A DNA stretch of 64,000 bases from Minisyncoccota bacterium (GCA_017991395.1 JAGOQQ010000006.1:66-64065), one strand, 5' to 3'. Positions 40,516 through 55,149 are shown, numbered from the stretch's first letter. Numbers and translations: made by a program. Notes: generated from the letters alone by a model not told the origin.

Positions 40516-40622
40516 AAATTAACTATAACAGAAGAAGGTAGTACGTGGATCGTAGAACGCGGAACGTTAAACGCAAAAGTACTAAACACAGGAACACTAA
40601 AACACGACATCATAGCATTCGC

Positions 40623-40790: not shown

Positions 40791-40846
40791 ACGGGATTCT
40801 GCATTTCACTATCGCCTATAAACTATTCGCCATCACCTTTATTCTT

Positions 40847-40907: not shown

Positions 40908-40928
40908 CTGAATTCCCTACCCGCTATA

Positions 40929-40952
40929 GCTTTTCATAAGTGTTCCCTTAAC
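40929..40952 (+). repeat. Conserved 24-mer GCTTTTCATAAGTGTTCCCTTAAC (copy 2)
   Basis: See 4117-4140. Confidence 0.7.
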
Positions 40953-41020
40953 CTATCACCTATTTCAACCTCACCAGTCACTTCGTGTCCTCCTCTCCTG
41001 TCTGGGAGAGGAGGGATTCT

Positions 41021-41062
41021 TTCGGCGTTTGTCCGCGTTAAGTCTGCGCACAGTCAGCGTCT
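41021..41062. repeat. TCCGCGT-type box array in the 3' UTR of the ABC-F gene
   Basis: ttcggcgtttg tccgcgttaag tctgcgcacag tcagcgtct directly after the ABC-F stop. Confidence 0.55.
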
Positions 41063-42574: not shown

Positions 42575-42652
42575 TTAGAAACACACTTTAACACGGAATA
42601 GCGGTTTTGGCGAAAAATGGCACTGCGCTGGATTGAATTAAAAATTTCTCTT

Positions 42653-43282: not shown

Positions 43283-43314
43283 ACTTATTTATACATTTTC
43301 ATATTACTTATAAA

Positions 43315-43719
43315 TTACATATTGAGATACGTTATTCGGAGCTGTAGCACAGTCGCAAATGTGACCCACAACAAATACGGAATGTTTATATATACAATCC
43401 AATGCAAGCTGGGTGAAGTTTTCCATAAAAGTACTAGTGCCCAAATGAGAGTTCCGAGAACAAGGACAATATCAATAGATGCAAGCAAATTATTTTTGAG
43501 TCCAAATTGAAGTGGTGTAAACAAAAAATTAAACACTAGATTAAGAACAAAAGGCAATGCAACAATTGAAGGAATTTGCTTGTTGAAGGCTTTATAAAAT
43601 ACGATTGTAAAAGTAACCGCGATTATCGCATACAGAAATGTCCATACTGGACCAAAAATCCAACTTGGTGGTGCCCATGTGGGTTTGATTATTTGAGAGT
43701 ACCAATTGTATGTGTTCAT
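43315..43719 (-). CDS. TspO/MBR-family (tryptophan-rich sensory protein)-like membrane protein
   Basis: W-rich TM helices (KPTWAPPSWIFGPVWTFLY); shorter than canonical TspO (134 aa). Confidence 0.55.
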   Translation of the reverse strand: MNTYNWYSQIIKPTWAPPSWIFGPVWTFLYAIIAVTFTIVFYKAFNKQIPSIVALPFVLNLVFNFLFTPLQFGLKNNLLASIDIVLVLGTLIWALVLLWKTSPSLHWIVYINIPYLLWVTFATVLQLRITYLNM

Positions 43720-43850
43720 ATAAAAAGTATAGCATTGCTACGTATCATTTATGTTCTTTGTATTTCATAAAAAGATCTTTTGTTAATATTACTCTGTGTT
43801 TACAGCGTCAATAATAAAATATATAGTGAATGAAATGCTCCCCAAAAACC

Positions 43851-43868
43851 CATAAGTGTCCCCTCACC
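43851..43868 (+). repeat. Degenerate copy of the CATAAGTGTTCCCTTA motif (CATAAGTGTCCCCTCACC) 20 nt upstream of the ECF sigma start
   Basis: 13/16 match to the core of the 24-mer family, directly upstream of ATG 43888. Confidence 0.4.
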
Positions 43869-43887
43869 AAATCAAATCATTGTCAAA

Positions 43888-44526
43888 ATGAAAAACAAAC
43901 AATTAGTTTCCCGAAAAGAAACCCAAACTGAGTCTAAGTACATTTTGGCATTTGAGAATTTGATTAAAAAAGATTACTGCAAGTTCAAACATTTTCTAAA
44001 TCAAAAGACGCACTGCGATCAGCTCTCAGATGACATATTGCAAGAAGCAAGTATAAAAGCACTCAAGGCACTGAGAGAGCCTGGAAAGTATGATGAAACC
44101 GGAAATATGAAAAGTTGGTTTTTAAGAATAGTTAATAATGCATTTATTGATTATTTAAGATTTAGCAAAAATATTCCCACACACAATGCGATCAACATTT
44201 CACCAACAGACAAGAGCGCAGAAGATGGGTGGACTACAGCAGTTGCTGACACAAGTGAAATCTTTATGGATTTCCCTGATGATACATCTGACAAATTAGA
44301 TGAAATTATGCAGGATGAACTTTCCAACAAAGTATTGACTGCGATTTCAAAACTACCGAAAGCTCAGCGAGAAGTCATATTCTATCGACACGTGAGACAG
44401 CTTAGTTTCAAAGAAATTGCCGAAATAACGGGAGTTTCAATTAACACATGTTTAGGCAGAATGCGATATGCGCTGATAAACATCAGAAAGACACTTGGGC
44501 TTGATAGGATACTTATAAAAGAATAG
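43888..44526 (+). CDS. ECF-type RNA polymerase sigma factor (sigma-70 regions 2 and 4)
   Basis: Region 2 (...FLRIVNNAFIDYLR) and a region 4 HTH (LPKAQREVIFYRHVRQLSFKEIAEITGVSINTCLGRMRYAL). Confidence 0.75.
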   Translation: MKNKQLVSRKETQTESKYILAFENLIKKDYCKFKHFLNQKTHCDQLSDDILQEASIKALKALREPGKYDETGNMKSWFLRIVNNAFIDYLRFSKNIPTHNAINISPTDKSAEDGWTTAVADTSEIFMDFPDDTSDKLDEIMQDELSNKVLTAISKLPKAQREVIFYRHVRQLSFKEIAEITGVSINTCLGRMRYALINIRKTLGLDRILIKE

Positions 44527-44538
44527 AAATTTAAAGCA

Positions 44539-44567
44539 AAAAGACTGCGGTGTACGCAGTCTTTTTT
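44539..44567 (+). terminator. Rho-independent terminator after the ECF sigma gene
   Basis: aagactgcg gtgta cgcagtctt + T7. Confidence 0.75.
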
Positions 44568-44595
44568 TGTTACTTGCAAAACACTATTATAAAAC

Positions 44596-44656
44596 TTCCG
44601 CGTGATGTCCGCGTCTGTCTGCGACTATTGCTGGGGTCTTTGAGCTAGAACCGTGG
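44596..44656. repeat. TCCGCGT boxes followed by the block TTGCTGGGGT-CTTTGAGCTAG-AACCGTGG shared with the tRNA-Gln 3' flank
   Basis: TTGCTGGGGT (10 nt) and CTTTGAGCTAG (11 nt) also occur within 30 nt of each other at 53389-53417, where TTGCTGGGGT is the 3' end of tRNA-Gln. Confidence 0.55.
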
Positions 44657-44776
44657 ACAACCAAGCCCTGTAAGATTAATTACCAAGGTTCGTATATTAA
44701 ATTATGAGAAGCGGGATTTATTGCTCTGTTTGAAGAGTAAAATTTTATTGAAGAATAAAATTATATTATTGACGAA

Positions 44777-45358
44777 TTAGTACTGATCAAATTGTGAAAG
44801 ATCAACATCACTTGCACTCGCAGTACCGCCAGTCACTTCATTCAATGTTACTTCCCATCCTGCTGACTGCGTAGCTGTCGTCTCAAACTCAAATGTCTCA
44901 TCGAATGCAGAGGCGTGAGCATTTCGATTGAATTTCTGCGTAGATGCATTCCAATCTGTACCTTGTGCAAATGCAAGCCAATATGTACCGTCATCTATAT
45001 TTTCCATCGTGTAAGTACTGTTAGCTTTGATATATACAGTAAGTACTGAGGCGCCGTCACGAATCAATTTTGCCACCGCGTCATAGCTAGTTCCATTACT
45101 AATTTGCAATTGTCCCTCACCTTGCAAGTACGCACTTTGTTTCTTCAAGACAGTACCAGTCGGAAGCGAATTTCCTGGCGTAAGATCTGGAACCTGTACT
45201 GTCTCTTGTTGTGATTGTGTTACTGTCGAAGGAGTTGGCAAAGGTGATGATATGTCGGTGTCTTCCATGGCACCCCAAATAATCAAACCAACAACAATTA
45301 GCCAGAACCACCAGCGAGCCACAAACCGTAGAACGTCTTTTATTGATAAGTTTTGCAT
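44777..45358 (-). CDS. Hypothetical exported/membrane-anchored protein (193 aa)
   Basis: N-terminal TM (WWFWLIVVGLIIWGA), then a S/T/Q-rich linker and a beta-rich domain; no homology. Confidence 0.45.
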   Translation of the reverse strand: MQNLSIKDVLRFVARWWFWLIVVGLIIWGAMEDTDISSPLPTPSTVTQSQQETVQVPDLTPGNSLPTGTVLKKQSAYLQGEGQLQISNGTSYDAVAKLIRDGASVLTVYIKANSTYTMENIDDGTYWLAFAQGTDWNASTQKFNRNAHASAFDETFEFETTATQSAGWEVTLNEVTGGTASASDVDLSQFDQY

Positions 45359-45364
45359 AAAATA

Positions 45365-45685
45365 TTAATCATTATTCTTATAATGTTTTGGCGACCTAAA
45401 AAACAGAACAGCCGCTACGATATCTACAACGGACCAAAGGAAATAACCAAAATATAGTGGATTGATTGGATTAAAAACAATAGCAATACCGATCATAATC
45501 AACATCCATCTCTTATTCTTTTCTTTATGATAAAGATACACAGAGAATACAGCCGATCCAAAAACCACAAGCTTCAACGCTTGGTAAAAGAAATAAGGCC
45601 AGATTGGAATTACAGCAACAAGCAAAACAATAGCCGCAATTTTTGAGAATAATATTCGATATTCGCTTTGCTCCTTAGTTACCAT
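45365..45685 (-). CDS. Small three-TM membrane protein (106 aa)
   Basis: Three hydrophobic helices; no homology. Confidence 0.4.
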   Translation of the reverse strand: MVTKEQSEYRILFSKIAAIVLLVAVIPIWPYFFYQALKLVVFGSAVFSVYLYHKEKNKRWMLIMIGIAIVFNPINPLYFGYFLWSVVDIVAAVLFFRSPKHYKNND

Positions 45686-45690
45686 ATAAT

Positions 45691-46770
45691 TTACGATCGT
45701 TCTAAATCACCAAATTGACTATAGTAGGCAATTTCCTCGATTGAAATCGAAGGAGTAAACTTTTTGATTGCATTAATCAACATTTTTTCATTGACCATTT
45801 GCTCATCCTCTAATACTGCCGCACGAGCCGCTTCGGTTACGATAAGCTCAATATCTGACCCTACGTAGTTATCAGACATCTTAGCGAGCTTTTCAAAATC
45901 AATTTTTTTATCATACGGTCGACCTGAAAGACAGATTTTAAACAAGTCTCTCCTTGCTTCTAGATCTGGTGGTCCAACAAATATACGCTTGTCCATTCGT
46001 CCAGATCGTAAGATTGCCGTGTCGATCATGTGAGGACGGTTTGTAGCTCCCACAACTAAGATTTTACTACTACCAGCATTGTTAAGCTGAAGGAGAAACT
46101 CGTTGATTTCTTCTTTCTTAATATCTGCGGATGAACTGAGTTCTTCTCGCTTTGGGATAAGACCCTCGATCTCATCAATAAAGACAATGGATGGTGCCTG
46201 CAGTCTTGCCATCTCAAAGACTTTGCCAATATTTCCAACGGCACCGTGCACATATGATGTGGCGACCGAAGATGGGTTCATTTCTATAAAACTGTACCCA
46301 AGTTGTTCAGCCAACTTTTTAACAATAAAGGTCTTTCCACATCCAGGAGGTCCGAACAACAAGATACCGTTAGGGATACCTAGCTTAAATTTCTTATACT
46401 TCTCTGGATTCATGAGTGGTTCAATTACATCATTCATAAGCATTGCTTTGAGGGGTCTCATTCCAGCAACACAATCAAAACCCCGCAAGACAGTAAGGTC
46501 ATCGATGATTGCGGTAATCTTGTCGTGAGAATGTTCGTCAGTTATAACACCAAGGTATTTTTTACCGCTTATTTCGAGATGTACGAGATCGTACTTTTGA
46601 CTACGATCAATAATCTCATCCTGTTGGATGTTGGTAAATAAATAGAGGAACTTATCATTTGAAAGCGAATACACCTCAGTGAAAAAAATCTTTTCTACAC
46701 GAGCAACCACACTCAATTTATCTTTGAGTTTGTAACCTGGGTGTAAAAGTGGTTTTGTTGTATTTGTCAT
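45691..46770 (-). CDS. Classic-clade AAA ATPase (single AAA domain, Cdc48/FtsH-ATPase-like) with ~150-aa N-terminal domain
   Basis: Walker A LLFGPPGCGKTF, Walker B IVFIDEIE, SRH ILVVGATNRPHMIDTAILRSGRMDKRIF. Start set at MTNTT so that the 46781-47650 gene is not overlapped. Confidence 0.8.
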   Translation of the reverse strand: MTNTTKPLLHPGYKLKDKLSVVARVEKIFFTEVYSLSNDKFLYLFTNIQQDEIIDRSQKYDLVHLEISGKKYLGVITDEHSHDKITAIIDDLTVLRGFDCVAGMRPLKAMLMNDVIEPLMNPEKYKKFKLGIPNGILLFGPPGCGKTFIVKKLAEQLGYSFIEMNPSSVATSYVHGAVGNIGKVFEMARLQAPSIVFIDEIEGLIPKREELSSSADIKKEEINEFLLQLNNAGSSKILVVGATNRPHMIDTAILRSGRMDKRIFVGPPDLEARRDLFKICLSGRPYDKKIDFEKLAKMSDNYVGSDIELIVTEAARAAVLEDEQMVNEKMLINAIKKFTPSISIEEIAYYSQFGDLERS

Positions 46771-46780
46771 ATATTTATAT

Positions 46781-47650
46781 TTAATAAGGTTCTGTACATA
46801 TGTATTTACCGCCCTCGACGTAACCGGCATATCTACTATTTCGACCCACATCCTTTTCGCATATTGCATTTATTGATGCTGTACTAACACACGAGTTTCC
46901 CTCAATGTCCCAGTCATATCCATATCCACAATCGCACACTCGTTTTCCATCTTCCGTAGTCGAATAAGCACCAGTTCCGTAACTATTCACACACGACTGA
47001 TTGAACGAGCTAAGGGAATAACATGCAGTTCGCCCGTTATCCCAATAAGAACCAACTTCACAATCACATATGTTTTTTCCTTCAGTAAGATCTACTTTAA
47101 GGAAACTTGTCCCTGGCCACTGTGAAGCACAGCTTTCATCACGTGCAACTGTAAATTTTACGCACTGTTGCGAGGTAGCACCTAAAGAATATCCAGCTGC
47201 ACAACCGCAAGAGTTCGTGGCACTATCATATGTTGCGTTGTATCCATTACGCTCCTGGCAAATTTCTAGAGGAGTTTGAACCGCGGGAGTTGTTTGTGTC
47301 TTTTCGGCTACTGGAACGTAGGAATTTGTATTTGTATCTGTCTCTACTTCGACATCTGTTTCTGAAGTATCAAAAATATCATTCAATGATTCGCTATTTG
47401 AGGGTGGAGGCAAAGTATTAGTCGTTGCTGTGCTATTACTATCTCCACTACTGGCGCTTACAGCAATAATAATTATTAAAACTCCAAGAGCAATCGCTCC
47501 TTGTGTCCATTTAACACCATCTGACATTGTTGACTCATCAACCGTCGATTTATGTGACGGTTGATGAGACCACTTCTTTTCTGATTTTTTAGGAGCACCT
47601 TCCCCAAGGAAGTCCAAATCAAGTTTTAGTTTTTTATCTTTATGCTCCAT
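46781..47650 (-). CDS. Single-pass membrane protein with extracytoplasmic Cys-rich repeats (C-x-C-x2-GY-x-W motif x3)
   Basis: N-terminal cytoplasmic K..L.LDFLGEG motif, TM (AIALGVLIIIIAV), S/T-rich linker, then repeats CGCAAGYSL.., CDCEVGSYWDNGRTAC, CDCGYGYDWDIEGNSC. Confidence 0.5.
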   Translation of the reverse strand: MEHKDKKLKLDLDFLGEGAPKKSEKKWSHQPSHKSTVDESTMSDGVKWTQGAIALGVLIIIIAVSASSGDSNSTATTNTLPPPSNSESLNDIFDTSETDVEVETDTNTNSYVPVAEKTQTTPAVQTPLEICQERNGYNATYDSATNSCGCAAGYSLGATSQQCVKFTVARDESCASQWPGTSFLKVDLTEGKNICDCEVGSYWDNGRTACYSLSSFNQSCVNSYGTGAYSTTEDGKRVCDCGYGYDWDIEGNSCVSTASINAICEKDVGRNSRYAGYVEGGKYICTEPY

Positions 47651-47655
47651 AGTTT

Positions 47656-48369
47656 TTATTCAAATAATCCACTGGCAATGACCAATACGTAGAAAATTGC
47701 AGGCGCAACAACGAACCAGAATATACCCCGACCATTCTGCACATGCATGACTTTTTTCACACCCTGATAACTAATATAAATTGAGTAGATGATTGCCAAG
47801 AGAGAAAGAATTCCAAAGATAACATCCACACTGGATGCTTCTGAATAATAGAAATAAAAATAATCACTGCCGTAAGCAATGTGATTAAGGAGTAGAGAAC
47901 CAATAGCTGTCACTGAAATTGGGAGAGAAGAAAAAGTATAGATATTTCGGGCTGTGTCGATAGTGCCAGATCCTTTTGACCATCCAACTCGAACATGATA
48001 GAACCAACCACCGATGTAATAAGCAATTGCTCCAGATAAGATACCTCCAAATAGAGCAATCGCCCAAACTTCACCCCAACTAGAGGATTCAGAGCTAGTA
48101 AATCGATCCGCTGCACTTCCAATACCGAGAATCCAAATCGCCAAAAGTAGGTATTTTGGATTAGACGTAACCAGATGTTTCTGTGCGAATTCGCTAAAGT
48201 TTGTAAAGCAGTCTTTAAAATACTCAAAGAATTTAACTCTATCTGAACGAGGAACAGGCATATGCTTTGGGGTTACGATTGGAATACTAGTTTGCTCCCC
48301 AGCTTTTTGTGGACTTTTGTCTAAGAAATCAAAATTTAAAGATTTTTTCTCGTTCATATATTTATCCAA
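47656..48369 (-). CDS. Polytopic membrane protein (5 predicted TMs) with N-terminal SLNFDFLDKS motif
   Basis: Hydrophobicity pattern; the N-terminal motif resembles that of the neighbouring 46781-47650 protein. Confidence 0.45.
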   Translation of the reverse strand: MDKYMNEKKSLNFDFLDKSPQKAGEQTSIPIVTPKHMPVPRSDRVKFFEYFKDCFTNFSEFAQKHLVTSNPKYLLLAIWILGIGSAADRFTSSESSSWGEVWAIALFGGILSGAIAYYIGGWFYHVRVGWSKGSGTIDTARNIYTFSSLPISVTAIGSLLLNHIAYGSDYFYFYYSEASSVDVIFGILSLLAIIYSIYISYQGVKKVMHVQNGRGIFWFVVAPAIFYVLVIASGLFE

Positions 48370-49957
48370 AGATTGCTCCTAAAACAATTATAATAATGAT
48401 CCGTACAACCCAGCCGATTACACTCGACCTTGTGTTCTCTGCTTTTTTATTTTTGATCACTTCACCAAGCCCTACGTAATAGTAGGAATTGAGAAGGATC
48501 TTAATTGCCATCTGCTCCCAGCGTTCATCGAATGCCTCATCGATTTTCTTCAACATCTTATTTTGAACCTCATCCACTTCACTTGCATTATCCGCAGTAA
48601 GAACCTTAACGTTGTTTTTAATCAAATCTAGCCAGGAGTCGATTACGCTCTTGTCTACATCATAAATTTCAATGTGTTCATACACAATCGATGCTGATTT
48701 TTGAAGTCCAGGTCGAGCCTCGTCGTATTTATCAGCTTCAAATAGCTTCTTCGCCTCAACGAACTCGACCACAGCATACATCGTAACAGCTTCCTTTTTC
48801 TTGCTATCCATCGCATTTTTAAATTCTGAATCTTTGCTCTCAGCCTTCTTTTGGTCTATCAGTGCTATCGCTTCTTGGAACTTCTTCTCATTCATGAGTT
48901 CCATGATTGGAGCTGTTGCACTCAAAAACTTTTTATTTTCTTCAAATTGGTCGAGATCCTGCTTAAGCTTGTTTTCCATCCCAGATGTACCAACAAACTG
49001 CATGGCAATCTTTAGAAGTTGCTCAGCTTTGGGCATATCGTCCAAATTATTGTGGATATCAAGAACAACAGAACGTATCGCACCCGCCGCTCGGTCACGT
49101 ATCGTTTTTGATTGACTGTCATCATATAGACCCAGATCGATCAGCTTGTTGCAACAATCTTGGATTTTTCCGATATGTTCTTTGATATCTGAAGCTTCTT
49201 GTGCATCAAGGTCACCATCCTCTGAAACCTTCATTGCCTCGAGCTTCTCGACTGCTTCTGTAATCTCCTGAAATATAGGAGCCATTACAACTTTCTCAGT
49301 CTTTTCTCCACGAAGATCAAATACTTTAGTAAATTCAGCTATGTAACTTCCATCCTCTCGAGAATGGCTAATCTCTGTATAAAGATCAGATAGAAATGAG
49401 GGCACCTGTTTATGAAAATCAGAGATGACTTCTTGATCGGTATCAAGCTCATCGTTATGTTTATATACTTTTGTGAAAGCTGTCCAGAATTTTGATGAGT
49501 TAGTAAGCTCATGCCAGATTTTTAAAGACTCTTTTAGATATCGCTTATTGTCTTCTTTGAAAAGTAGGATGCAATACAAAAGCGCTAGATTCTTTTTATA
49601 AAACATCGCCTTTGTAGTATCACTTTCGGAATTATGTTCCCAAACCCTTATAGCTCCTTCTGGATCTTTCTTACGAAGAATACCAACCGCCTGTTCGTCT
49701 ATGTCATCAGAAATATGAAACCAGAAGAAATAATCCTTAATCTGCTTCTTTGGTGAAGAGAGTTTTTGAACAGCGTCCTTTATCGCACCTTCCGTTCGAA
49801 AGTTATCGAACACGCACATATCTAGGTCGTATTCTGGAGTATCATCAATTTGGAGAAACTTTACAATTTCCTTTGCCCGTTTCTGCGTATCTCGTTGTGA
49901 GGCCGACGTGTCGAGACCGAGAATGTGATATGCATTATTTTTTAGTAGGTTTGACAT
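48362..49957 (-). CDS. Tail-anchored protein with degenerate J-like N-terminus (no HPD) and a large helical domain
   Basis: NAYHILGLDTSASQRDTQKRAKEI resembles J-domain helices I-II, but the HPD tripeptide is absent. C-terminal TM VVRIIIIIVLGAIFG; 531 aa. Confidence 0.45.
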   Translation of the reverse strand: MSNLLKNNAYHILGLDTSASQRDTQKRAKEIVKFLQIDDTPEYDLDMCVFDNFRTEGAIKDAVQKLSSPKKQIKDYFFWFHISDDIDEQAVGILRKKDPEGAIRVWEHNSESDTTKAMFYKKNLALLYCILLFKEDNKRYLKESLKIWHELTNSSKFWTAFTKVYKHNDELDTDQEVISDFHKQVPSFLSDLYTEISHSREDGSYIAEFTKVFDLRGEKTEKVVMAPIFQEITEAVEKLEAMKVSEDGDLDAQEASDIKEHIGKIQDCCNKLIDLGLYDDSQSKTIRDRAAGAIRSVVLDIHNNLDDMPKAEQLLKIAMQFVGTSGMENKLKQDLDQFEENKKFLSATAPIMELMNEKKFQEAIALIDQKKAESKDSEFKNAMDSKKKEAVTMYAVVEFVEAKKLFEADKYDEARPGLQKSASIVYEHIEIYDVDKSVIDSWLDLIKNNVKVLTADNASEVDEVQNKMLKKIDEAFDERWEQMAIKILLNSYYYVGLGEVIKNKKAENTRSSVIGWVVRIIIIIVLGAIFG

Positions 49958-49960
49958 AAA

Positions 49961-52474
49961 TTATTTAGTAATACCAGACATGTTACCTTGTATCATTTTC
50001 TGCTCGCTCGGTGGAAGAAGGAGCATCAGGTTGTGTACCGACCTTTTAAGTTCTTCAACATCGCCAAGCTCAAGGGCACGCTGTCCTTTATTCATGTAGT
50101 ATTCAGCCTCTTTCGGACTTGTCCAAGTATGACTTGTTTCCTTTATCTTATTGAACATATAGACCCATGATGCAGGATTTGAGAAAAGTGCCTTGTGATT
50201 GAGTTCTTGAAGCTGTTCCAATGAACGGCTGAGCATTACCTTATCCTCTTTACCAATAGCTAGATCAGCTTCATCCTTGATCACACGTAACTGGTCTTCG
50301 TACATTGTTTTTTCTGTCTGTTCACTCCATTCACTAATAATTCCTTCTACACTTTTTACCTTCTCTTCGTATTCTGATTTAAGCTGTGGAAACTCTTTCA
50401 TCTTTTCGAGACCATCAAGCCGGATTTTAAGATCTTTAAGTTGCTTATCAGCCTTTCGTTTTTCATCCTCATCCACTTTTGCAGTTGATAGACTTCCTTC
50501 AAGAGATTGCACTAGATTCTGAATTTTACCTTTCTCTTCTGGAGTACATGATTGCTCGACTTTTTTCGCGCGCTCGCTCTGCTCCTTGAGCTGTGTCTCC
50601 ATTTCTTCGACACTCAAATTTTCTGCATGGATTGTCGCACGTGCACTAAATGTGAGATCAATCGACGGAATAAACGCCTCTGCCCTAACTTCACGAGATT
50701 CGTTCACCTCGATTGTAAGTGCAATTTCTGTACCTTCTGGTAGATCATATGGGAGTTTTTCTCCTGTCACTTTGAGGTCACAAATGAATTGATTCTGATC
50801 TGGCACAGCTGATTCACCTTCACGGATTTTGATTGGGAGCGCGTTCTCCTTTTCACCCTTGGCAAGCGGTTTAAGTGTCTTATATGTATGTGTAGCTTTG
50901 AGGGGAAGAATACTATTTTTCTCAAAAATCACTTCAAACTCCTCGGTCATAGCAAAGCTAGCACCACTGAATCCACGCTTTACAACTCCCACTCCTATGG
51001 AGTGTGGTATCGGTGCACCAGATACTGAAAGACCGTGCGTTATAGAGAACGCCTCTGGTTCGGTTTTGATCGGGTTCCCTTCTGCGTCAAACATATAAAT
51101 CCAAAAGAGAGTAGTTTTGTTTTTATCGAGATTTACAGTTTCAATAAATTTACCGTTCTTGAGTTTAATTTTCTTTCCGCTAAAGAGTCCTCCTTCGCTC
51201 TGTATTTGAATAAAGTATTCTTCTTCTGTATCCTTAAGCTCTTCTACGACTCCGGTTATAGTCTCTTCGGTTTCAGAAGTTAGTGATTCATAGTTGAGAC
51301 GCAAGGTTTTAATTGAGGAATCAGTTAACTTTTTTGACTCAAGAAATTCCTTTGGAATCTTCTGACTCACGGCATAGATACATGCACCACGCGCAACAAC
51401 TGTTAATGGATCAGACGAAGTGTCTACTTCTATCTTCAAGTCTTTTTCCAAACGATCTTTTACGTACGGAATCATAGTAGGTCCGCCAACAAGTACAATC
51501 CTTGAGATGGATGATTGCTTCACTCCAGCCTCCTTAATGGTCTCCTTACTCAATTCAACAGTTTTATCGACAAACGGTTTAATCAGCTTTTCGAAATCTT
51601 TACGGGTAAAAGGTATAGTAAGATATATTTCCTTGCCATTGTCATCATCACCAATCTTTTCAACCTCGATAATTATTTCATCAGTTTGAGAAAGTGAAAT
51701 CTTTGCCGTCTCTGCATAGTATTTTAGCTTTGCAAACACACTACGATATTTTTTACTACTACGAGTAAAGTCTTCGATTTCATACTTTTCTAGAATAGCT
51801 GGTACGATGACCTTATCCACAACAGTCCAATCGAAATCTTTACCACCAAGAAAGTTGTCTCCATTATGTCCTAGTACAGAAAGTGCACCGTCTTTTGACG
51901 AAATGAGGGCCACATCAAACGTACCACCTCCTAAGTCATACACGAGCCAGTTTTCATTCTGAGAATTCATAAAACCGTAAGCTATCGCCGCCGCTATCGG
52001 TTCTTGTATCAAAACCACATGCTTGAAACCTGCGACATTACCCGCACGCTTAGTGGCTTCCGCCTGAAGGGTTGAGAAATATGCAGGTATTGTAATAACG
52101 ACACCAGTAGTTGGTGTGCCAGGATATTTCCGCAAAACATCCTCCTTGAGACTCTTTAAAATCTCCCCGGAGATTTCTTCTGGGGACATATCTTCGCCAA
52201 GGCGATCGAAATGAACAGTGTCCGAAGTTCCCATCAAGCGCTTTACCTCTGCCTTGTTATTTGAAAATTCTTCTTCCGATGCGTCCTTATAGAGACGCTC
52301 ATAAGATCGTTTACCAACGATCTTGTTTTTTGCTTTGTCTACGCCAAAAACCGATGGTGTGTACTCGTCATTAAAAATATTTTTAACAACCTCCACATGG
52401 TCTTTATTGTTTGCTGCAACTTCGGAATTTGTTGTTCCTAAGTCGATGCCAATCTGTATGTTTTGGTTGTTCAT
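49961..52474 (-). CDS. Atypical Hsp70-family ATPase (837 aa): canonical NBD, ~100-aa insertion, SBD-beta-like domain, extended helical/coiled-coil C-terminus
   Basis: Phosphate-1 IGIDLGTTNSEVA, phosphate-2 VYDLGGGTFDVALIS and adenosine IVLVGGPTMIPYV motifs. The SBD-beta-like segment (IPHSIGVGVV...ILPLKATHTYKT...EIALTIEVNESREVRAEAF) follows an insertion after ARGACIYAVSQ. There is no EEVD tail. Confidence 0.8.
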   Translation of the reverse strand: MNNQNIQIGIDLGTTNSEVAANNKDHVEVVKNIFNDEYTPSVFGVDKAKNKIVGKRSYERLYKDASEEEFSNNKAEVKRLMGTSDTVHFDRLGEDMSPEEISGEILKSLKEDVLRKYPGTPTTGVVITIPAYFSTLQAEATKRAGNVAGFKHVVLIQEPIAAAIAYGFMNSQNENWLVYDLGGGTFDVALISSKDGALSVLGHNGDNFLGGKDFDWTVVDKVIVPAILEKYEIEDFTRSSKKYRSVFAKLKYYAETAKISLSQTDEIIIEVEKIGDDDNGKEIYLTIPFTRKDFEKLIKPFVDKTVELSKETIKEAGVKQSSISRIVLVGGPTMIPYVKDRLEKDLKIEVDTSSDPLTVVARGACIYAVSQKIPKEFLESKKLTDSSIKTLRLNYESLTSETEETITGVVEELKDTEEEYFIQIQSEGGLFSGKKIKLKNGKFIETVNLDKNKTTLFWIYMFDAEGNPIKTEPEAFSITHGLSVSGAPIPHSIGVGVVKRGFSGASFAMTEEFEVIFEKNSILPLKATHTYKTLKPLAKGEKENALPIKIREGESAVPDQNQFICDLKVTGEKLPYDLPEGTEIALTIEVNESREVRAEAFIPSIDLTFSARATIHAENLSVEEMETQLKEQSERAKKVEQSCTPEEKGKIQNLVQSLEGSLSTAKVDEDEKRKADKQLKDLKIRLDGLEKMKEFPQLKSEYEEKVKSVEGIISEWSEQTEKTMYEDQLRVIKDEADLAIGKEDKVMLSRSLEQLQELNHKALFSNPASWVYMFNKIKETSHTWTSPKEAEYYMNKGQRALELGDVEELKRSVHNLMLLLPPSEQKMIQGNMSGITK

Positions 52475-52486
52475 AAAATATATTTC

Positions 52487-53008
52487 TTAGTTACTTAATA
52501 ATATAATCTTGGCCTTTTTTACGACCTGACCTTTAACCAAAATCGTTGGCTCAACAGTTTCCTTTACCATAGGCATTGTCACAGCAGTGTCTTTCTCCAC
52601 CGAGAGAACATCAAGATTCAATCCGTCATTGAATTTCTGATTGGTATAATCAACAATCTCAATGTCATAATTAGAGATATACCGTCTAAACTTGAGAACG
52701 GAATTCTCTAGACCTTTTCGTTGGTTTTCTTGAAGACTGTCGGCAATTTTTAATAATCGTTGTTCAACGCGCCATACTTCTGTTGCGAGTTCAACAAGCT
52801 CAGTAACACTTGTTGAAAGATTTATAGACTTGGGAGCTACTGCATATTTAATTTCATCGCTAATCTTTTTGTAAAGTTCATCAAATTTATCTGAACCTTC
52901 TGTACTCTTACCTGATTTACGGCTAAGTACATAGAGAAATGCAAAAAGAAAAAAGATCGCAATTACGAGGACGAGTATAAATATTGGATTTAAAAATATG
53001 GTATTCAT
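52487..53008 (-). CDS. Membrane-anchored GrpE-like protein
   Basis: N-terminal TM (ILVLVIAIFFLFAFLYVL), helical segment ELATEVWRVEQRLLKIADSLQEN (cf. GrpE ...LLPVIDSLERAL) and a C-terminal beta-domain-like DIEIVDYTNQKFNDGLNLDVLSVE...VKGQVVKKAKIIL. Weaker than a canonical GrpE match. Confidence 0.45.
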   Translation of the reverse strand: MNTIFLNPIFILVLVIAIFFLFAFLYVLSRKSGKSTEGSDKFDELYKKISDEIKYAVAPKSINLSTSVTELVELATEVWRVEQRLLKIADSLQENQRKGLENSVLKFRRYISNYDIEIVDYTNQKFNDGLNLDVLSVEKDTAVTMPMVKETVEPTILVKGQVVKKAKIILLSN

Positions 53009-53009
53009 T

Positions 53010-53282
53010 TTATTTCATCAACTCGTCAGTAGGAACATCTACCACTTTAGCTAATTTAGCAATGGTTGCGAGAGTGGTATTTGTCTTACCATTCTCAATA
53101 TTACTTATGAAGCTTCGACTAACCTCAAGTTCCCGAGCAATATCACCCTGAGAGATATTCTTTGCTATTCGGATATGCTTAAGGTTATTACCTAATTTTT
53201 CTGAATCACTTTTCATGATCTCACTATACGCTCTGTTATAGTTTAACACAACAGTATCGTATAGTGTACTACTGTCTATCAA
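53010..53282 (-). CDS. XRE-family helix-turn-helix transcriptional regulator
   Basis: HTH_XRE pattern LKHIRIAKNISQGDIARELEVSRSFISNIENGK; first gene of the co-directional block. Confidence 0.8.
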   Translation of the reverse strand: MIDSSTLYDTVVLNYNRAYSEIMKSDSEKLGNNLKHIRIAKNISQGDIARELEVSRSFISNIENGKTNTTLATIAKLAKVVDVPTDELMK

Positions 53283-53299
53283 TCAATATAGACACGAAC

Positions 53300-53328
53300 A
53301 AAAACGCACCCAATCGGGTGCGTTTTTG
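53300..53328 (-). terminator. Hairpin terminator between tRNA-Gln and the XRE gene (aaaacgcaccc aatc gggtgcgtttt)
   Basis: 10-bp stem with T/A runs on both sides; it could end the tRNA-Gln transcript. Confidence 0.55.
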
Positions 53329-53388
53329 TTCTGGATACTGCTCTCAGCAGGTATGCAATTTCAGTATGGATTTTCCTGATTAGTTCTA

Positions 53389-53417
53389 TCTTTGAGCTAG
53401 CTCAACTTTGCTGGGGT
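53389..53417. repeat. Block TCTTTGAGCTAG..TTTGCTGGGGT at the tRNA-Gln 3' end (partner of 44628-44656)
   Basis: See 44596-44656; TTGCTGGGGT forms the acceptor 3' strand plus flank of tRNA-Gln. Confidence 0.55.
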
Positions 53418-53481
53418 ACATGGATTCGAACCACGATTAAAGGCTTCAAAGGCCTCTGTCCTACCATTAGACGATACCCCA
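53411..53481 (-). tRNA. tRNA-Gln (anticodon TTG)
   Basis: The reverse complement gives TGGGGTATCGTCTAATGGTAGGACAGAGGCCTTTGAAGCCTTTAATCGTGGTTCGAATCCATGTACCCCAG. U1-A72 acceptor pair, anticodon loop CTTTGAA. Closely resembles E. coli tRNA-Gln. CCA is not encoded. Confidence 0.85.
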
Positions 53482-53532
53482 ATAAACACGAGAAAACTAT
53501 AGCAAATATTTAGGAATTTTTCCAGTCATAAA

Positions 53533-53557
53533 CAAAAGCCTGAGGATACGGGCTTTT
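53533..53557. repeat. Hairpin ACAAAAGCCTGAGGATACGGGCTTTT, directly repeated (25/26 nt) at 54086-54110; the two copies flank the transglutaminase-like gene
   Basis: Both copies are terminator-like hairpins (AAAGCC..GGCTTT). One lies 25 nt upstream of the start and one immediately after the stop of the 53583-54086 gene. Confidence 0.6.
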
Positions 53558-53582
53558 GTTTTCTTTTGTTATAATTACAATT

Positions 53583-54086
53583 ATGGAAAAAACACCTTTA
53601 GAAAATGATTCTATCGTAACACTCAACGACGCAATCAGGTCACTTCAAAATAAAAACCTTGAGATGTATGATGCGGTCAACGAAACACGAAATCTTATTT
53701 ATTCTCACCGTCAATCACTCGGGCACACTGTTCAACCAAAATCGATCATGGAATCACGCTTCATGCCAGCCAAAGAAGCATTTGAAAAAGGAATGGCAAG
53801 CTGTGGTGTAACTGCAAATATCTCAGCAACGATTCTTCGAGAACTCGGGTTTCAAGTAAAATTGATTCATGGTGAATCAGAGGATTCTGTTGATCACGCA
53901 TGGATTGCTGTACTCAACAAAGACACAAACGAGTGGGACCAATTTGATCTGACACGAGAAGACCTCAGTATTCCAGAAACTCACAAAGTAAAAGAAATGG
54001 TTTACTCATTCGAAGATATCAGAGAACAAATTGAAAACGACCACAAAACTCTTCGTCAAAGAAGAAAAGAAAGAGGTTTTGAATAA
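53583..54086 (+). CDS. Transglutaminase-like (papain-fold Cys-His-Asp) protein
   Basis: GMASCGVTANISATILRELGF (Cys), DHAWIAV (His) and WDQFDLT (Asp) in the order and spacing of transglutaminase-like domains. Start set at ATG 53583; the track uses an upstream alternative start. Confidence 0.5.
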   Translation: MEKTPLENDSIVTLNDAIRSLQNKNLEMYDAVNETRNLIYSHRQSLGHTVQPKSIMESRFMPAKEAFEKGMASCGVTANISATILRELGFQVKLIHGESEDSVDHAWIAVLNKDTNEWDQFDLTREDLSIPETHKVKEMVYSFEDIREQIENDHKTLRQRRKERGFE

Positions 54087-54110
54087 CAAAAGCCCGAGGA
54101 TACGGGCTTT
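54086..54110. terminator. Bidirectional hairpin terminator (second copy of the 53533 hairpin) between the transglutaminase-like gene and dnaX
   Basis: aaagcccg aggata cgggcttt. Confidence 0.6.
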
Positions 54111-54111
54111 A

Positions 54112-55149
54112 CTATTCTTCCCTGCTCGAAATCTTGAGTGCGAGGATTTCGAGTGGGAGCGTGGGGATGAATGCATCAGAAAATTCTTCATACACACGAA
54201 GCATTGTGACGAGAGTTTTTGAGGCGAGAATTCCCTCTTTCTCTTTTGCGATTCCTTCGAGAAAGATTTTGTCACTTTCAGACAGCACACTTTCGATTTC
54301 CTTTTTCATTGTTGGTGCAAATCGTACGAGAAGACCTTGGCGAAATGTATGCATTACGAGTTTCAAAAAAAGCTTCATATCTACTTGTGCATCGTGTGCT
54401 TTGTGAACTACTTTCAAACATTTTTCTGCATCACGAAGTACCAATCCTTGGATATATTCATTGACCAACGTAGATTTAGGCGCTCCTGTTACTTTTTCGA
54501 TTTCATCCGCAGAAATTTTCTTGTCCGTCGAATAATTGAGTACTTTTTGCAAAATTCCAAGCGTATCGCGAAATGATCCATCGCCAGCGATAGCAATTAT
54601 TTCCGCACCCATTGGCTCAAGCACTATTCCCTCCTTCTTTGCAATATCAATCACCACATCTTTTAAAATATGTTCTGATGGTTTTTTGAATGTAAACACC
54701 TGACAGCGTGAGACGATAGTTTCTGGAAGTTTTTCTGGGTCGGTGGTCGCGAGTATAAAAATCACATGCTTTGGTGGTTCTTCGAGAGTTTTGAGAAATG
54801 CATTTGCGGCAGATTTTGAAAGCATGTGCACTTCGTCGAGAATATATACTTTGAATTTTGAAGAGAAAGGAAGTGAGTGTACACCTTCGGTGAGTTCGCG
54901 AATATCGTCAACGCCATTGTTTGACGCGGCGTCGAGTTCATAAATATCTTCTGGTGCACATCCGAGATTGCGTGAAAAAATTCTCGCCACAGAAGTCTTA
55001 CCAGTACCACGTGTACCTACAAAAAGGTACGCGTGTCCTACTGCACCTTTTTTCAGTGCCCCTTCAAGTACGGAAACAACATGGTCTTGCCCGACCACTT
55101 CTTTGAAATCCTTTGGTCTGTATTTTCGATAAAGTGAAAGCTCTGACAT
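54112..55149 (-). CDS. dnaX: DNA polymerase III subunit gamma/tau (short form)
   Basis: YRPKDFKEVVGQ..., Walker A GTRGTGKTS, ...ILDEVHML; start set at MSELSLYRKYRP. Confidence 0.8.
   Translation of the reverse strand: MSELSLYRKYRPKDFKEVVGQDHVVSVLEGALKKGAVGHAYLFVGTRGTGKTSVARIFSRNLGCAPEDIYELDAASNNGVDDIRELTEGVHSLPFSSKFKVYILDEVHMLSKSAANAFLKTLEEPPKHVIFILATTDPEKLPETIVSRCQVFTFKKPSEHILKDVVIDIAKKEGIVLEPMGAEIIAIAGDGSFRDTLGILQKVLNYSTDKKISADEIEKVTGAPKSTLVNEYIQGLVLRDAEKCLKVVHKAHDAQVDMKLFLKLVMHTFRQGLLVRFAPTMKKEIESVLSESDKIFLEGIAKEKEGILASKTLVTMLRVYEEFSDAFIPTLPLEILALKISSREE

Follow-up and report, generated by a model that had tools for sequence, protein, structure and literature searches.

A block of nine genes adjoins the 3' end of a tRNA-Gln gene in a Minisyncoccota bacterium (CPR/Patescibacteria), which raises the question of whether this block is a genomic island inserted at the tRNA and, if so, what kind of recombinase inserted it. 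The window, i.e. the whole stretch of DNA that was analysed, comprises 64,000 nt (GCA_017991395.1 JAGOQQ010000006.1:66-64065); positions are counted from its first letter, and L-numbers are labels of the loci and contigs compared with it. The segment at 44638-53417 is probably an integrative island that derives from a phage with a large serine recombinase (LSR). It is most likely a remnant left by deletion and may still be mobilisable in trans. An earlier note on this DNA had described an immobilised or remnant island; a remnant is indeed judged most likely, but both attachment sites are intact and mobilisation in trans is possible. The type of element is textbook, its setting (a serine recombinase, a tRNA target and a CPR host) is unusual. 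The features of the locus are summarized in Table 1.

Table 1. Features of the tRNA-Gln locus, from the tRNA gene to the distal host flank
Feature	Position	Strand	Basis or remark
tRNA-Gln(UUG), intact	53410-53481	-	ARAGORN (ttg); Rfam gives 53411-53481
attL copy of the 10-bp common core TTGCTGGGGT, tRNA-sense ACCCCAGCAA	53408-53417		L012 comparison
P' arm, island side of attL: CTTTGAGCTAGCTCAACT	53390-53407		homologous att arms
Hairpin, 16-bp perfect (GAACAAAAACGCACCC/GGGTGCGTTTTTGTTC), terminator-like in both directions	53296-53331		between attL and operon
Promoter-like site and inverted repeat CACTATACG...CGTATAGTG	53230-53282	-	candidate operator
g1, XRE/Cro-type HTH regulator, 90 aa from TTG start	53010-53282	-	ORF
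g2, 173 aa, hydrophobic N-terminal stretch, no family match	52487-53008	-	profile searches
g3, 837 aa, Hsp70/DnaK-type nucleotide-binding domain (aa 7-368)	49961-52474	-	Pfam E = 1e-81
g4, 531 aa, hydrophobic C-terminal stretch, no family match	48362-49957	-	profile searches
g5, Yip1-domain membrane protein	47656-48369	-	domain match
g6, 289 aa, one hydrophobic stretch then Cys-rich region, no family match	46781-47650	-	profile searches
g7, classic-clade AAA+ ATPase, PAN/Cdc48/FtsH-like, ORF 392 aa	45691-46869	-	domain match
g8, DUF6804 small protein	45365-45685	-	domain match
g9, 193 aa, hydrophobic N-terminal stretch, no confident family match	44777-45358	-	last cassette gene
P arm, island side of attR: CTTTGAGCTAGAACCGTGGACAACCAAGCCCTG..., tRNA-sense ...AGGGCTTGGTTGTCCACGGTTCTAGCTCAAAG	44638-44700		homologous att arms
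attR copy of the 10-bp common core TTGCTGGGGT	44628-44637		L012 comparison
Host flank, B' side	44538-44627		ECF-sigma terminator hairpin at 44538-44566

Limits of the block and the empty site

As the earlier note described, nine co-directional genes, all minus-strand ORFs within 44777-53282, adjoin tRNA-Gln, and the upper boundary is the tRNA 3' end, which points toward the block. The 8,780-bp insertion that holds these genes starts precisely at that end. An empty site, which the note had proposed looking for in a related genome, is found in L012 (JAHZTE010004374.1; ~94% identical to the window), where tRNA-Gln(UUG) runs straight into the ECF-sigma flank and the flanks are 87-95% identical to those of the window. 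L012 11752-11881 aligns with window 53538-53408 at 98.5% identity and L012 11872-12556 with window 44637-43953 at 93.1% identity, and the two alignments overlap by exactly 10 nt, the repeat TTGCTGGGGT. The empty site with this overlap defines the block as a discrete unit of insertion or excision at the tRNA 3' end: its presence or absence distinguishes close relatives precisely, and a direct repeat of the tRNA end lies at the distal boundary, the two copies being spaced 8,780 bp apart. The host flank beyond the distal copy includes 36 nt (97% identical) that directly succeed the tRNA in the empty site. The tRNA-Gln gene is identical along the alignment in L012 and in the more distant relative L007, and the integration core consists of its last 8 nt and 2 nt of trailer. 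The event was presumably an insertion rather than a loss; had the site been occupied ancestrally, excision in the L012 lineage would give the same picture.

The earlier note had argued from two words shared by both ends, the 10-mer TTGCTGGGGT and the 11-mer CTTTGAGCTAG, and had considered their joint occurrence very unlikely by chance. Each word does occur exactly twice in the window, at the ends of the block (the 11-mer at 44638-44648 and 53390-53400), and neither is a member of a dispersed repeat family. Their order, however, is opposite at the two ends (10-mer, 11-mer at 44.6 kb; 11-mer, 7 nt, 10-mer at 53.4 kb), so that they do not form one 21-nt direct repeat; the exact repeat is the 10 bp of the tRNA 3' end, and the 11-mer falls outside it. 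As a gapless repeat, the pair spans only 25 nt at 72% identity, which is not above chance repeats, and 56 of 300 dinucleotide shuffles (~19%) of the 20 kb on the 3' side of the tRNA hold a 10-nt stretch matching part of the final 28 nt of the tRNA region. The 10-mer alone is therefore not significant and the argument from chance does not hold; support for the island comes from comparative data rather than repeat statistics. The compositional contrast with the flanks, another check that the note had suggested, appears in part: the tetranucleotide distance between the island and the rest of the window (0.0164) is a clear outlier against 38 control windows (0.0096 +/- 0.0009, maximum 0.0120), whereas GC (0.392 in the island vs 0.3915) and GC3, which is similar to that of the flanks, are unremarkable.

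Attachment sites and the recombinase

Joining the island ends gives a dyad-symmetric attP, CTAGCTCAA-AG-ACCCCAGCAA-AG-TTGAGCTAG, with perfect 9-bp arms. Its CTAGC-N22-GCTAG spacing and CC|AG centre are the same in L007, where a 1.4-kb two-gene islet with homologous ends (joined: CTAGCTCGAG-ACGGCCAGCCAA-CTCGTGCTAG) occupies the same tRNA-Gln site. The two copies of the 11-mer mark the two arms of this attP, split between the island ends. The word looks like a direct repeat only because of a perfect palindrome, TTGAGCTAGCTCAA, which makes up the tRNA-proximal arm (53392-53405 in the P' arm). Inverted-repeat half-sites around a central dinucleotide and a short core shared by attP and attB are both features of LSR attachment sites. 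The common core is 10 bp in the window, CCAGC in L007 and L045 and CAGCAA in L056, with CAGC common to all; the crossover dinucleotide would be CA, and an LSR would perform the catalytic step. A common core of 5-10 bp is characteristic of serine integrases (5-8 bp in the Int-S systems of Mycobacterium abscessus), whereas tRNA sites of tyrosine integrases share 25-76 bp (PMC8092301). The short core, the dyad-symmetric attP and the linkage to LSR genes together mark the attachment sites as being of the serine-recombinase type. The classic tRNA 3'-end signature reported in the earlier note is thus right as to an island and site-specific insertion, as the empty site attests, but not as to the type of attachment site.

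The P' arm is homologous to attL of L094 and L007 and to attP of the phage contig L056, and the P arm to attR of L007 and attP of the LSR phage contig L045. At equal distance from the core, 10 of 21 positions of the P arm are like those of the tRNA T-arm. The likeness to the T-stem that had been noted for AACCGTGG (44649-44656) is borne out to this extent, and this word lies within a 15-nt block, CCACGGTTCTAGCTC on the tRNA-sense strand, that is conserved in L007 and L045.

The island has no integrase or recombinase gene of its own, as had been noted: no recombinase-like domain was found in the nine island proteins (Pfam, PADLOC, PHROGs, NCBIfam). A recombinase search of the wider contig had also been suggested; its LSR part was run, and an LSR profile HMM has no match across the whole 64-kb window, nor in L007 or L012. 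The link between the attachment sites and an LSR therefore rests on homologous arms in other contigs. Both arms adjoin each other, as attP, in the viral contigs L045 and L056, which carry LSR, terminase and methylase genes. In L045 the attP reads CCACGGTTCTAGCTCGAGGAAGCCAGC-TATTGACAGCTAACACGAG, and the LSR, encoded along with methylase(s) and a terminase, is 72-75% identical to that of L018. In L056 the attP (...CAGCAA-CTGACAGCTAGCACGAG) is followed by the ATCCAGAACAAAAA-hairpin segment as at window 53296-53345, a segment that L094 shares as well, and the LSR has Resolvase, Recombinase and Zn_ribbon_recom domains. One arm of each contig matches the window well and the other in part; a phage attP identical to the window's arms was not found in the viral collection, nor was an excised, circular or attP form of the island.

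LSR prophages are found at the same tRNA-Gln in L104 (tRNA-Gln, two genes, then a convergent LSR) and in L091, where the tRNA adjoins the LSR gene directly. Of 41 LSR viral loci found, 40 were scanned, and 15 of these have a minus-strand tRNA gene downstream of the plus-strand LSR; in L053, L072 and L086 the tRNA is at most ~150 nt from the LSR 3' end. Linkage of an LSR to the attachment sites is thus seen with attP in L045 and L056 and at tRNA-Gln in L104 and L091, and is absent in the window itself. From this linkage, the recombinase responsible would be an LSR of a CPR temperate-phage family. Comparison of the related loci shows insertion of the island at tRNA-Gln, by what can be read from the sequences as attP x attB recombination.

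The cargo operon and its distribution

The inverted repeat upstream is a candidate operator of the HTH regulator g1, for which the identical contigs L005/L006 have a shorter call of 79 aa (53010-53249). The Hsp70-like g3 is conserved together with its partner g2 at all related loci. Although g3 shares the Hsp70 nucleotide-binding domain with the DnaK/DnaJ/GrpE system, only aa 7-368 match, its score is far below the DnaK equivalog cut-off (267 vs 648 bits, NCBIfam), and its C-terminal ~470 aa have no match in profile searches; it was rejected as a DnaK chaperone. The hydrophobic termini of g2 and g4 suggest membrane anchors. A weak GrpE-like register in g2 and a weak likeness of the g4 N-terminus to J-domain helices I-II, without the HPD motif, are both statistically inconclusive. 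The most variable member of the cassette is g6. The g7 product, with a called length of 359 aa (45691-46770), belongs to the classic AAA+ ATPases and is similar to IetA/IteA of the IetAS anti-phage system (PADLOC IetA model E = 8e-35); the IetAS (IteA) assignment was rejected, as g7 matches IetA at the AAA core only (NCBIfam, 114 vs 510-bit cut-off) and the operon holds no IetS-like protease. Unlike both known systems, the operon adds membrane proteins (the Yip1 protein and, by assumption, the DUF6804 protein g8), and it matches no PADLOC system. Since it is carried on phages and next to defence-type genes, the operon is suggested to be a phage-exclusion or envelope-associated protein-remodelling system.

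The Hsp70-like/AAA+ cargo recurs in one viral contig and at 13 further MAG loci of CPR bacteria and Omnitrophota, which carry the labels Uhrbacteria, Saccharibacteria, Paceibacterota, Yanofskybacteria, Gracilibacteria and Omnitrophota; most of these loci conserve g2-g4, g7 and g8. Identity of the Hsp70-like protein across the other cargo loci is 57-98%, whereas that of the host DnaX to any named CPR relative does not exceed 61%. At eight loci the cargo has an LSR gene within 10 kb, and the LSR gene abuts a tRNA in L019, L022 and L023. To judge from these occurrences, the cargo is evidently mobile.

According to the earlier note, the same block in a non-tRNA context would count against an island. 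This is literally the case in L015, which matches window 44765-53272 at 94.7% nucleotide identity and has neither a tRNA nor att ends. The island reading nevertheless stands, since the L015 cargo lies ~9 kb from an LSR-terminase-methylase gene block, which makes the operon phage-borne cargo. The homology begins at 53272 and ends ~12 nt past the g9 stop codon; similarity running 12-16 nt past this stop enters the start of a Peptidase_S49 gene in L015, a thin hint (~15 nt) of a possible deletion endpoint. The cassette lies outside the slot next to attL in L015, L014, L021 and L023, so more than one rearrangement may be needed.

Origin of the island

In the proposed history, a phage-type attP would first have undergone conservative site-specific recombination with an attB formed by the last 8 nt of tRNA-Gln(UUG) and 2 nt of trailer, catalysed by an LSR from a family on temperate phages of CPR bacteria. 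Read in the tRNA-sense direction, the accessory cargo of such phages occupies the interval that separates attP from the LSR gene's 3' end. In the window's lineage this slot holds a self-contained nine-gene operon (HTH regulator, an Hsp70-like ATPase accompanied by two conserved partners, membrane proteins and AAA+ ATPase) with its own promoter, and the terminator would insulate it from the tRNA. The LSR and all other phage genes would then have been lost, most probably by deletion distal to the cargo; the island keeps attL, the terminator, the cargo operon and attR, without an LSR or any other phage gene. With an LSR and a directionality factor in trans, it is predicted that the island could in principle excise and restore the complete attP.

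It is also conceivable, though unlikely, that the island was never a whole phage and is instead a minimal element of attP and cargo, similar to a cis-mobilisable element (CIME) or satellite, whose integration and excision depend on a co-resident or infecting phage that supplies the LSR (and directionality factor) in trans. Integration by serine integrases requires only attP, attB and the enzyme, and the island has intact attL and attR, with both arms, the core and the perfect 9-bp inverted repeat, and no recombinase of its own. The L007 islet would be a second member of this class: the two elements are independent, both lack a recombinase, and they occupy the same tRNA-Gln in different species, their ends being homologous and their cargo unrelated; the closest relative of the window has a precise empty site. 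Against this reading, the viral collection yielded no circular or attP form, the LSR HMM found no helper in the window, and the S49-like nucleotides past g9 suggest truncation. Two remnants could, moreover, both keep their att ends by chance, as the tRNA limits the deletions on one side and host flank limits them on the other.

That the block is ancestral, with no insertion, and was lost from the L012 lineage by illegitimate recombination between two chance 10-nt microhomologies is very improbable. A 10-mer match alone is expected in ~19% of shuffles and a deletion between short repeats always leaves exactly one copy, but such a loss does not explain the dyad just inside both repeats, which is contiguous in LSR phage contigs, the presence of homologous ends with different cargo in L007, the complete operon with its own promoter and terminator, the foreign tetranucleotide usage, or the cassette next to LSR genes in distant CPR classes. 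Least probable of all is a transposon-like insertion, in which TTGAGCTAG would form terminal inverted repeats of 9-11 bp and the 10-bp repeat would be a target-site duplication, or a tyrosine-integrase tRNA island minus its integrase gene. The short inverted termini and 10-bp flanking duplication are formally compatible with transposition, and tyrosine integrases usually target tRNA 3' ends, although the core is far below their typical 25-76 bp (PMC8092301). Both candidates were rejected: Pfam searches found neither a transposase nor a tyrosine-integrase (Phage_integrase) domain in the nine island proteins or in selected neighbour ORFs of related loci, the same nucleotide of the same tRNA is reused across several genomes, and the ends exist joined, as attP, in LSR phage contigs.

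As an LSR-phage derivative, the island can be compared with several known systems. With tyrosine-integrase tRNA islands (P4-like, pathogenicity islands) it shares insertion at a tRNA 3' end, a direct repeat of this end at the far boundary, presence/absence polymorphism among relatives and a foreign oligonucleotide signature; unlike them, it has a core that does not rebuild the tRNA 3' segment, no tyrosine integrase, and att arms linked to serine recombinases. Like defective ('grounded') prophages and CIMEs, it is flanked by attL and attR, lacks recombination and replication genes and keeps accessory cargo. CIMEs are cis-mobilisable elements derived from integrative elements and have been described for tyrosine-recombinase ICEs of Firmicutes, whereas the att sites here are of the LSR-phage type and mobilisation in trans is a prediction. 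With serine-integrase temperate phages and prophages (Bxb1, phiC31, Mycobacterium abscessus Int-S) the island shares a short common core, a dyad-symmetric attP of ~50 bp, accessory cargo close to the att site and, in related contigs, an LSR with Resolvase, Recombinase and Zn-ribbon domains. It differs from these phages in its CPR/Patescibacteria hosts, in the absence of the recombinase gene from the window, in its target, since it sits at the very 3' end of a tRNA gene, which remains intact, and not within a protein-coding gene, and in a P arm that mimics the tRNA T-arm.

Insertion unit and empty site at tRNA-Gln

The nine-gene block adjoins tRNA-Gln(ttg), which lies on the minus strand, so the 3' end of the tRNA faces into the block. 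Homologues of the neighbouring dnaX gene are found in Paceibacterota, Parcubacteria and Minisyncoccia MAGs, with at most 61% identity for any named relative, and exact matches to the window are short metagenomic contigs from a few samples only. Source samples are SRR11088409, SRR11088410, SRR11088448 and SRR11088468, together with the read sets of GCA_020054605.1 and GCA_020050275.1. On sequence grounds, the source is an uncultured CPR/Patescibacteria bacterium. Relatives were chosen via the contigs encoding the closest DnaX homologues (L012, L007 and L010), and all three carry tRNA-Gln(ttg) downstream of dnaX. Across the aligned stretch, the window, L012 and L007 have identical tRNA-Gln sequences.

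The earlier note had proposed a genomic island at this tRNA and had named an empty site in a related genome as a check. L012 (NCBI JAHZTE010004374.1), the closest available relative, with flanks 87-95% identical to the window, is decisive in this respect, as it joins tRNA-Gln straight to the ECF-sigma side. L012 11752-11881 aligns with window 53538-53408 at 98.5% identity and L012 11872-12556 with window 44637-43953 at 93.1% identity. The two alignments overlap by exactly 10 nt, so that the window differs from L012 by one 8,780-bp unit (44638-53417). The core duplicated on its flanks consists of the last 8 nt of the tRNA and 2 nt of trailer. Alignment therefore shows the island as a discrete unit that occupies the tRNA-Gln 3' end in the window and is lacking in L012, with a duplicated core of 10 bp. 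Exact-protein look-ups of flanking genes for a strain-level empty site returned only identical occupied contigs or contigs breaking inside the tRNA. Independent Logan assemblies of the same organism (L002, L003, L005 and L006) all end between 53357 and 53436/53456, in attL (the tRNA-side end of the island) and the 3' half of the tRNA. Such breaks would be expected from graph branching, caused either by a shared tRNA or by co-existing occupied and differently occupied sites.

Two words had been reported as shared by both ends. Both are real, with exactly two copies each in the window, but their order is reversed between the island ends and repeat statistics alone are insufficient. The gapless repeat at the boundaries (repeat D10) is just 25 nt at 72% identity, ranking with ordinary chance repeats, and 56 of 300 shuffles (19%) of the adjacent 20 kb contained 10 nt matching the final 28 nt of the tRNA region. 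Repeat statistics were therefore set aside as evidence for the island. Composition gave a mixed picture. The tetranucleotide distance of the island from the rest of the window is an outlier (0.0164, against a mean of 0.0096, SD 0.0009 and maximum of 0.0120 in 38 leave-one-out control windows), whereas GC content (0.392 vs 0.3915), GC skew and GC3 do not deviate and were rejected as signs of foreign origin. These values fit an origin in a foreign donor whose GC content is similar.

The remark that no integrase is visible agrees with protein-level searches. The nine island proteins have no recombinase or transposase match in Pfam, PADLOC, PHROGs or NCBIfam, and g4 and g6 have no sequence relative in the PDB, so that a recombinase identity is not supported for them. 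A profile HMM built from 53 large serine recombinase (LSR) ORFs, with a reporting limit of E <= 10, has no match in the 64-kb window, L007, L012 or L010.

Features of the island, its attachment sites and its surroundings (window coordinates unless a locus is named; slashes separate sequence blocks)
Feature	Position	Sequence or content
tRNA-Gln(ttg)	53410-53481 (ARAGORN); 53411-53481 (Rfam)	
Nine ORFs, g1-g9	44777-53282	minus strand
10-mer, two copies	44628-44637; 53408-53417	TTGCTGGGGT
11-mer, two copies	44638-44648; 53390-53400	CTTTGAGCTAG
Palindrome around tRNA-proximal arm	53392-53405	TTGAGCTAGCTCAA
Hairpin (repeat I18)	53296-53331	16 bp, perfect
Empty site, L012 (alignment A2)		tRNA...ACCCCAGCAA/TAGTCGCAGACAG
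Occupied site, window (alignment A2)		...ACCCCAGCAA/AGTTGAGCTAGCTCAAAG...(8.78 kb)...CTAGCTCAAAG/ACCCCAGCAA/TAGTCGCAGACAG
attB junction, reconstructed		tRNA...ACCCCAGCAA/TAGTCGCAGACAGACGCGG
attP, reconstructed from window ends		...CCACGGTTCTAGCTCAAAG/ACCCCAGCAA/AGTTGAGCTAGCTCAAAGATAG
L007 islet, tRNA side		tRNA-Gln then CCAGCCAACTCGTGCTAGCACGAAG
L007 islet, genes	L007 5548-6783	two: 164 aa and 244 aa
L007 islet, far end	~1.4 kb from tRNA	AGGGCTTGGCCGACCACGGTTCTAGCTCGAGACGGCCAGCATAT
g1		XRE-type HTH regulator
g3		Hsp70 nucleotide-binding domain aa 7-368, E = 1e-81; ~470 aa C-terminal unmatched
g5		Yip1 domain
g7		classic AAA+ ATPase, PAN/Cdc48/FtsH-like, IetA-like core
g8		DUF6804
g2, g4, g6, g9		no family match; one hydrophobic stretch each, membrane-anchor-like (translations judged by eye)
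Terminator-like hairpin repeats	53531-53565; 54085-54119	35 nt, 89% identical
Transglutaminase-core-like gene	53583-54086	167 aa
Variable stretch, window	~40300-44630	ECF sigma, TspO, NAD-binding protein, ABC-F protein
Variable stretch, L007	L007 6870-12620	PMSR, GT2 glycosyltransferase, polysaccharide deacetylase, DUF2726
Dispersed intergenic repeats	40847-40906 and 57921-57980; 40620-40651 / 40762-40793 (inverted); 16155-16182	28-60 nt, 94-97% identical
Inverted pair	22345-22767; 34275-34697	~420 nt, 72% identical

Attachment sites and their counterparts in relatives and phages

When the ends of the island are joined, they read CTAGCTCAA-AG-ACCCCAGCAA-AG-TTGAGCTAG, with perfect 9-bp inverted repeats around a 14-bp centre; in this reconstruction both ends together are shown to form a dyad site. 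The 11-mer of the earlier note is indeed present at both ends, but it does not make one direct repeat with the 10-mer and instead represents two inverted attP arms. It looks like a direct repeat because the tRNA-proximal arm sits in a perfect palindrome. The distal arm continues ...AGGGCTTGGTTGTCCACGGTTCTAGCTCAAAG and agrees with the T-arm region of the tRNA at 10 of 21 positions at equal distance from the core (GGTTC.A....CA), which accounts for the degenerate T-stem match that had been seen at the lower boundary. The perfect hairpin separates attL from the operon. Next, upstream of the HTH gene, come a promoter-like site and an inverted repeat. Rfam returned no family in the att regions besides the tRNA.

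L007, a more distant relative with a dnaX ~81% nucleotide-identical to that of the window, carries a small islet at the same tRNA. The ends of the islet are homologous to those of the window and its cargo is unrelated. In the attP reconstructed from L007, the CTAGC-N22-GCTAG spacing is that of the window, centred on CC/AG, and the LSR HMM finds no recombinase in the islet. The 164-aa protein has a sub-threshold AbiEi-antitoxin-like match (E = 0.008) and the 244-aa protein carries the precomputed Pfam annotation AF_1680; the pair may be toxin-antitoxin or abortive-infection genes as att-flanked cargo.

By sequence similarity, both arms are also shown to be joined in LSR-encoding phage contigs. 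Among 19 IMG/VR matches to the distal-arm 15-mer CCACGGTTCTAGCTC, only the viral contig L045 has extended att similarity together with gene-level homology to LSR elements (gene homology was tested on 4 of the 19); the other viral matches, with no extended att similarity, were rejected. L045 carries CCACGGTTCTAGCTCGAGGAAGCCAGC-TATTGACAGCTAACACGAG and encodes a methylase, a terminase and an LSR homologous to the LSRs of L018 and L015, two MAG loci with the cassette. A metagenome scan with the tRNA-Gln 3' 23-mer gave 35 loci, with a window-type attL in L094 and L125, and next to its attL, L094 has sequence homologous to a site in the LSR phage contig L056. This site reads ...GACCACGACAGT-CAGCAA-CTGACAGCTAGCACGAG..., followed by the ATCCAGAACAAAAA-hairpin segment common to window 53296-53345, and is an attP, since it has no tRNA. 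The LSR encoded by L056 contains Resolvase, Recombinase and Zn_ribbon_recom domains, and two of the four genes between attP and LSR are methylases. Across all fetched loci, the att-family motif was found only in the window (and L004, the same sequence), L007, L094, L045 and L056. Queries for an excised or attP form gave three chance matches in GC-rich unrelated contexts (GCTCAAAGACCCCAGCAA) and a single match within the sigma-factor gene of a large phage contig (AGTTGAGCTAGCTCAAAG), and the tRNA 3' 23-mer has no match in the viral collection.

At least 41 viral contigs encode an LSR of this family. Of the 40 that were scanned for tRNA genes, 15 have one on the minus strand, downstream of the LSR, and a tRNA lies within ~150 nt of the LSR 3' end in L053, L072 and L086. 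L104 and L091 are LSR prophages at the same tRNA-Gln as the island; the order in L104 is tRNA, a 255-aa gene, a 425-aa gene and a convergent LSR. The layout common to these elements is therefore tRNA, attL, cargo in the tRNA-sense direction, convergent LSR, terminase and methylases. Compared with this layout, the window holds attL, the terminator, the nine-gene cargo and attR (the ECF-sigma-side end), and nothing more.

Catalysis, rival histories and classification

Integration would have been catalysed by an LSR, and the crossover probably fell on the central CA of CCAGC, because CAGC is the sole core common to all members. A core of 5-10 bp fits serine integrases. Tyrosine-integrase sites at tRNA genes have 25-76 bp in common and rebuild the tRNA end (PMC8092301). 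A tyrosine-integrase island, a transposon and a chance microhomology deletion in L012 are very improbable even when taken together, as each leaves the phage attP homology unexplained. The island might also never have had an LSR and have moved in trans. Both of its att sites are intact and L007 offers a second recombinase-less islet, in keeping with such a unit, though we consider this history unlikely. A broader proposal, to which we give similarly little credence, is that the tRNA-Gln 3' end of these CPR bacteria serves as a cassette-exchange site, where units made of attP and cargo but devoid of a recombinase (8.8 kb here and 1.4 kb in L007) would enter and leave through the trans action of LSRs from temperate phages with the same attB. 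Such exchange would let phage cargo, the Hsp70-like/AAA+ operon among it, pass between CPR lineages as free-standing cassettes. In function this would be comparable to integron cassettes or CIMEs, with serine integrases as the driving enzymes.

Given an ancestor with the layout of L018, L056 or L104, in which cargo lies next to attL and the LSR follows, the most economical history is a deletion that removed the LSR together with the phage body. In L015 the similarity extends 12-16 nt beyond the g9 stop, into the start-codon region of its Peptidase_S49 gene, which hints at a deletion. The island belongs with tRNA-linked integrative islands or prophage remnants, a well-known textbook kind of element. 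It is unusual in its serine-recombinase-type att at a tRNA 3' end, its T-arm-mimicking attP arm and its CPR host. A self-mobile island is defined by its own integrase; since the window island has none, it is classed as an LSR-phage-derived integrase-less island (remnant or CIME-like) and not as an active integrative element.

The mobile elements and phages of Candidate Phyla Radiation bacteria are poorly known and their genetic manipulation is hard. For these bacteria, a guess made by eye has become a defined integration system. Its attB is now nucleotide-precise at the 3' end of tRNA-Gln(UUG), and attL, attR, two natural attP sites and at least 41 viral contigs with a candidate serine integrase make it directly testable and a potential source of tools. 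Serine integrases are usually described as inserting within protein-coding genes, whereas those considered here would insert at tRNA 3' ends by means of a T-arm-mimicking attP arm. In the library searched, no paper joins serine recombinases, Patescibacteria and prophages.

Cargo, its relatives and the neighbouring regions

The g3 protein scores far under the DnaK equivalog cut-offs, and deposited phage genomes show only DnaK-level similarity to it (~35% identity, nucleotide-binding domain only). With approximate DnaJ and GrpE queries, hhalign probabilities were 31% for g4 against the J-domain and 3% for g2 against GrpE. PADLOC matched the operon to none of its known defence systems. The Hsp70-like components of CoCoNuT systems differ in being McrB-linked, in an architecture unlike that of the cargo operon. 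No paper mentioning DUF6804 was found in a literature search.

A scan of GTDB genomes with the Hsp70-like protein found 13 cassette loci (L013-L025, 57-98% protein identity) in MAGs labelled Uhrbacteria, Saccharibacteria, Paceibacterota, Parcubacteria, Yanofskybacteria, Harrisonbacteria, Staskawiczbacteria, Gracilibacteria and Omnitrophota, and IMG/VR holds one cassette-bearing contig, L028 (IMGVR_UViG_3300037483_001825, 62 kb, of which 22 kb were covered). Most loci keep g2, g3, g4, g7 and g8, with g5, g6 and g9 more variable. LSR homologues occur within 10 kb of the cassette by tblastn in L014, L015, L018, L019, L021, L022, L023 and L025, and the LSR adjoins a tRNA in L019, L022 and L023. 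These matches show the cargo in distant CPR lineages, often near predicted LSR genes. In L022 a 584-aa Resolvase+Recombinase protein adjoins tRNA-Gln(ctg), followed by a primase-polymerase/helicase gene; no direct repeat of the tRNA end is visible there, as expected for a serine integrase. L015, covered over 22 kb of the 186.8-kb contig JBBTRC010000008.1, is 94.7% identical in nucleotides over 44765-53272 only, without att ends or a tRNA. Among its neighbours are a terminase, two DNA methylases, a reverse transcriptase and Peptidase_S49, with an LSR at the locus edge. Because the operon occupies phage cargo slots beside restriction-modification-like genes (L056) or a reverse transcriptase and methylases (L015), a role in phage-host conflict is suggested. 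The Hsp70-like/AAA+ operon would be phage-borne, horizontally transferred cargo and not a housekeeping chaperone system, which focuses hypotheses of its function on phage-host conflict or envelope remodelling.

A Peptidase_S49/NfeD-like gene directly follows the cassette in L015 (4-nt spacing) and in L013 and L016 (within ~45 nt). In L017 and L022 this gene sits further on, and the window has no copy of it; the complete operon may exceed nine genes. Contig L018 begins with a tRNA T-arm-like fragment (GGTTCGAGTCCTAG; L018 1-110) ~320 nt upstream of the cassette, with no ARAGORN tRNA, possibly an attP or attL belonging to a phage that has the cassette beside its att site. L023 and L024 are the same cassette-bearing sequence (identical BLAST statistics), binned in one Gracilibacteria and one 'Bacteroidales' MAG of the same study, and represent either a mis-binned mobile element or a shared phage.

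The stretch from the tRNA-Gln attB to the conserved GIY-YIG and SWIB genes differs entirely between the window and L007 lineages, and L012 sequence covers only part of the ECF-sigma gene; in this comparison the region downstream of tRNA-Gln is a variable hot spot. On the other side, between dnaX and tRNA-Gln, the terminator-like hairpin repeats bracket the transglutaminase-core-like gene. L012 and L007 have peptide deformylase (def) in this interval instead, and def has no significant match in the window, so this looks like a second, independent gene replacement beside tRNA-Gln. The short dispersed intergenic repeats occur also in intergenic regions of L012 and are unrelated to the att sites, and the inverted pair of ~420 nt is probably two paralogous genes.
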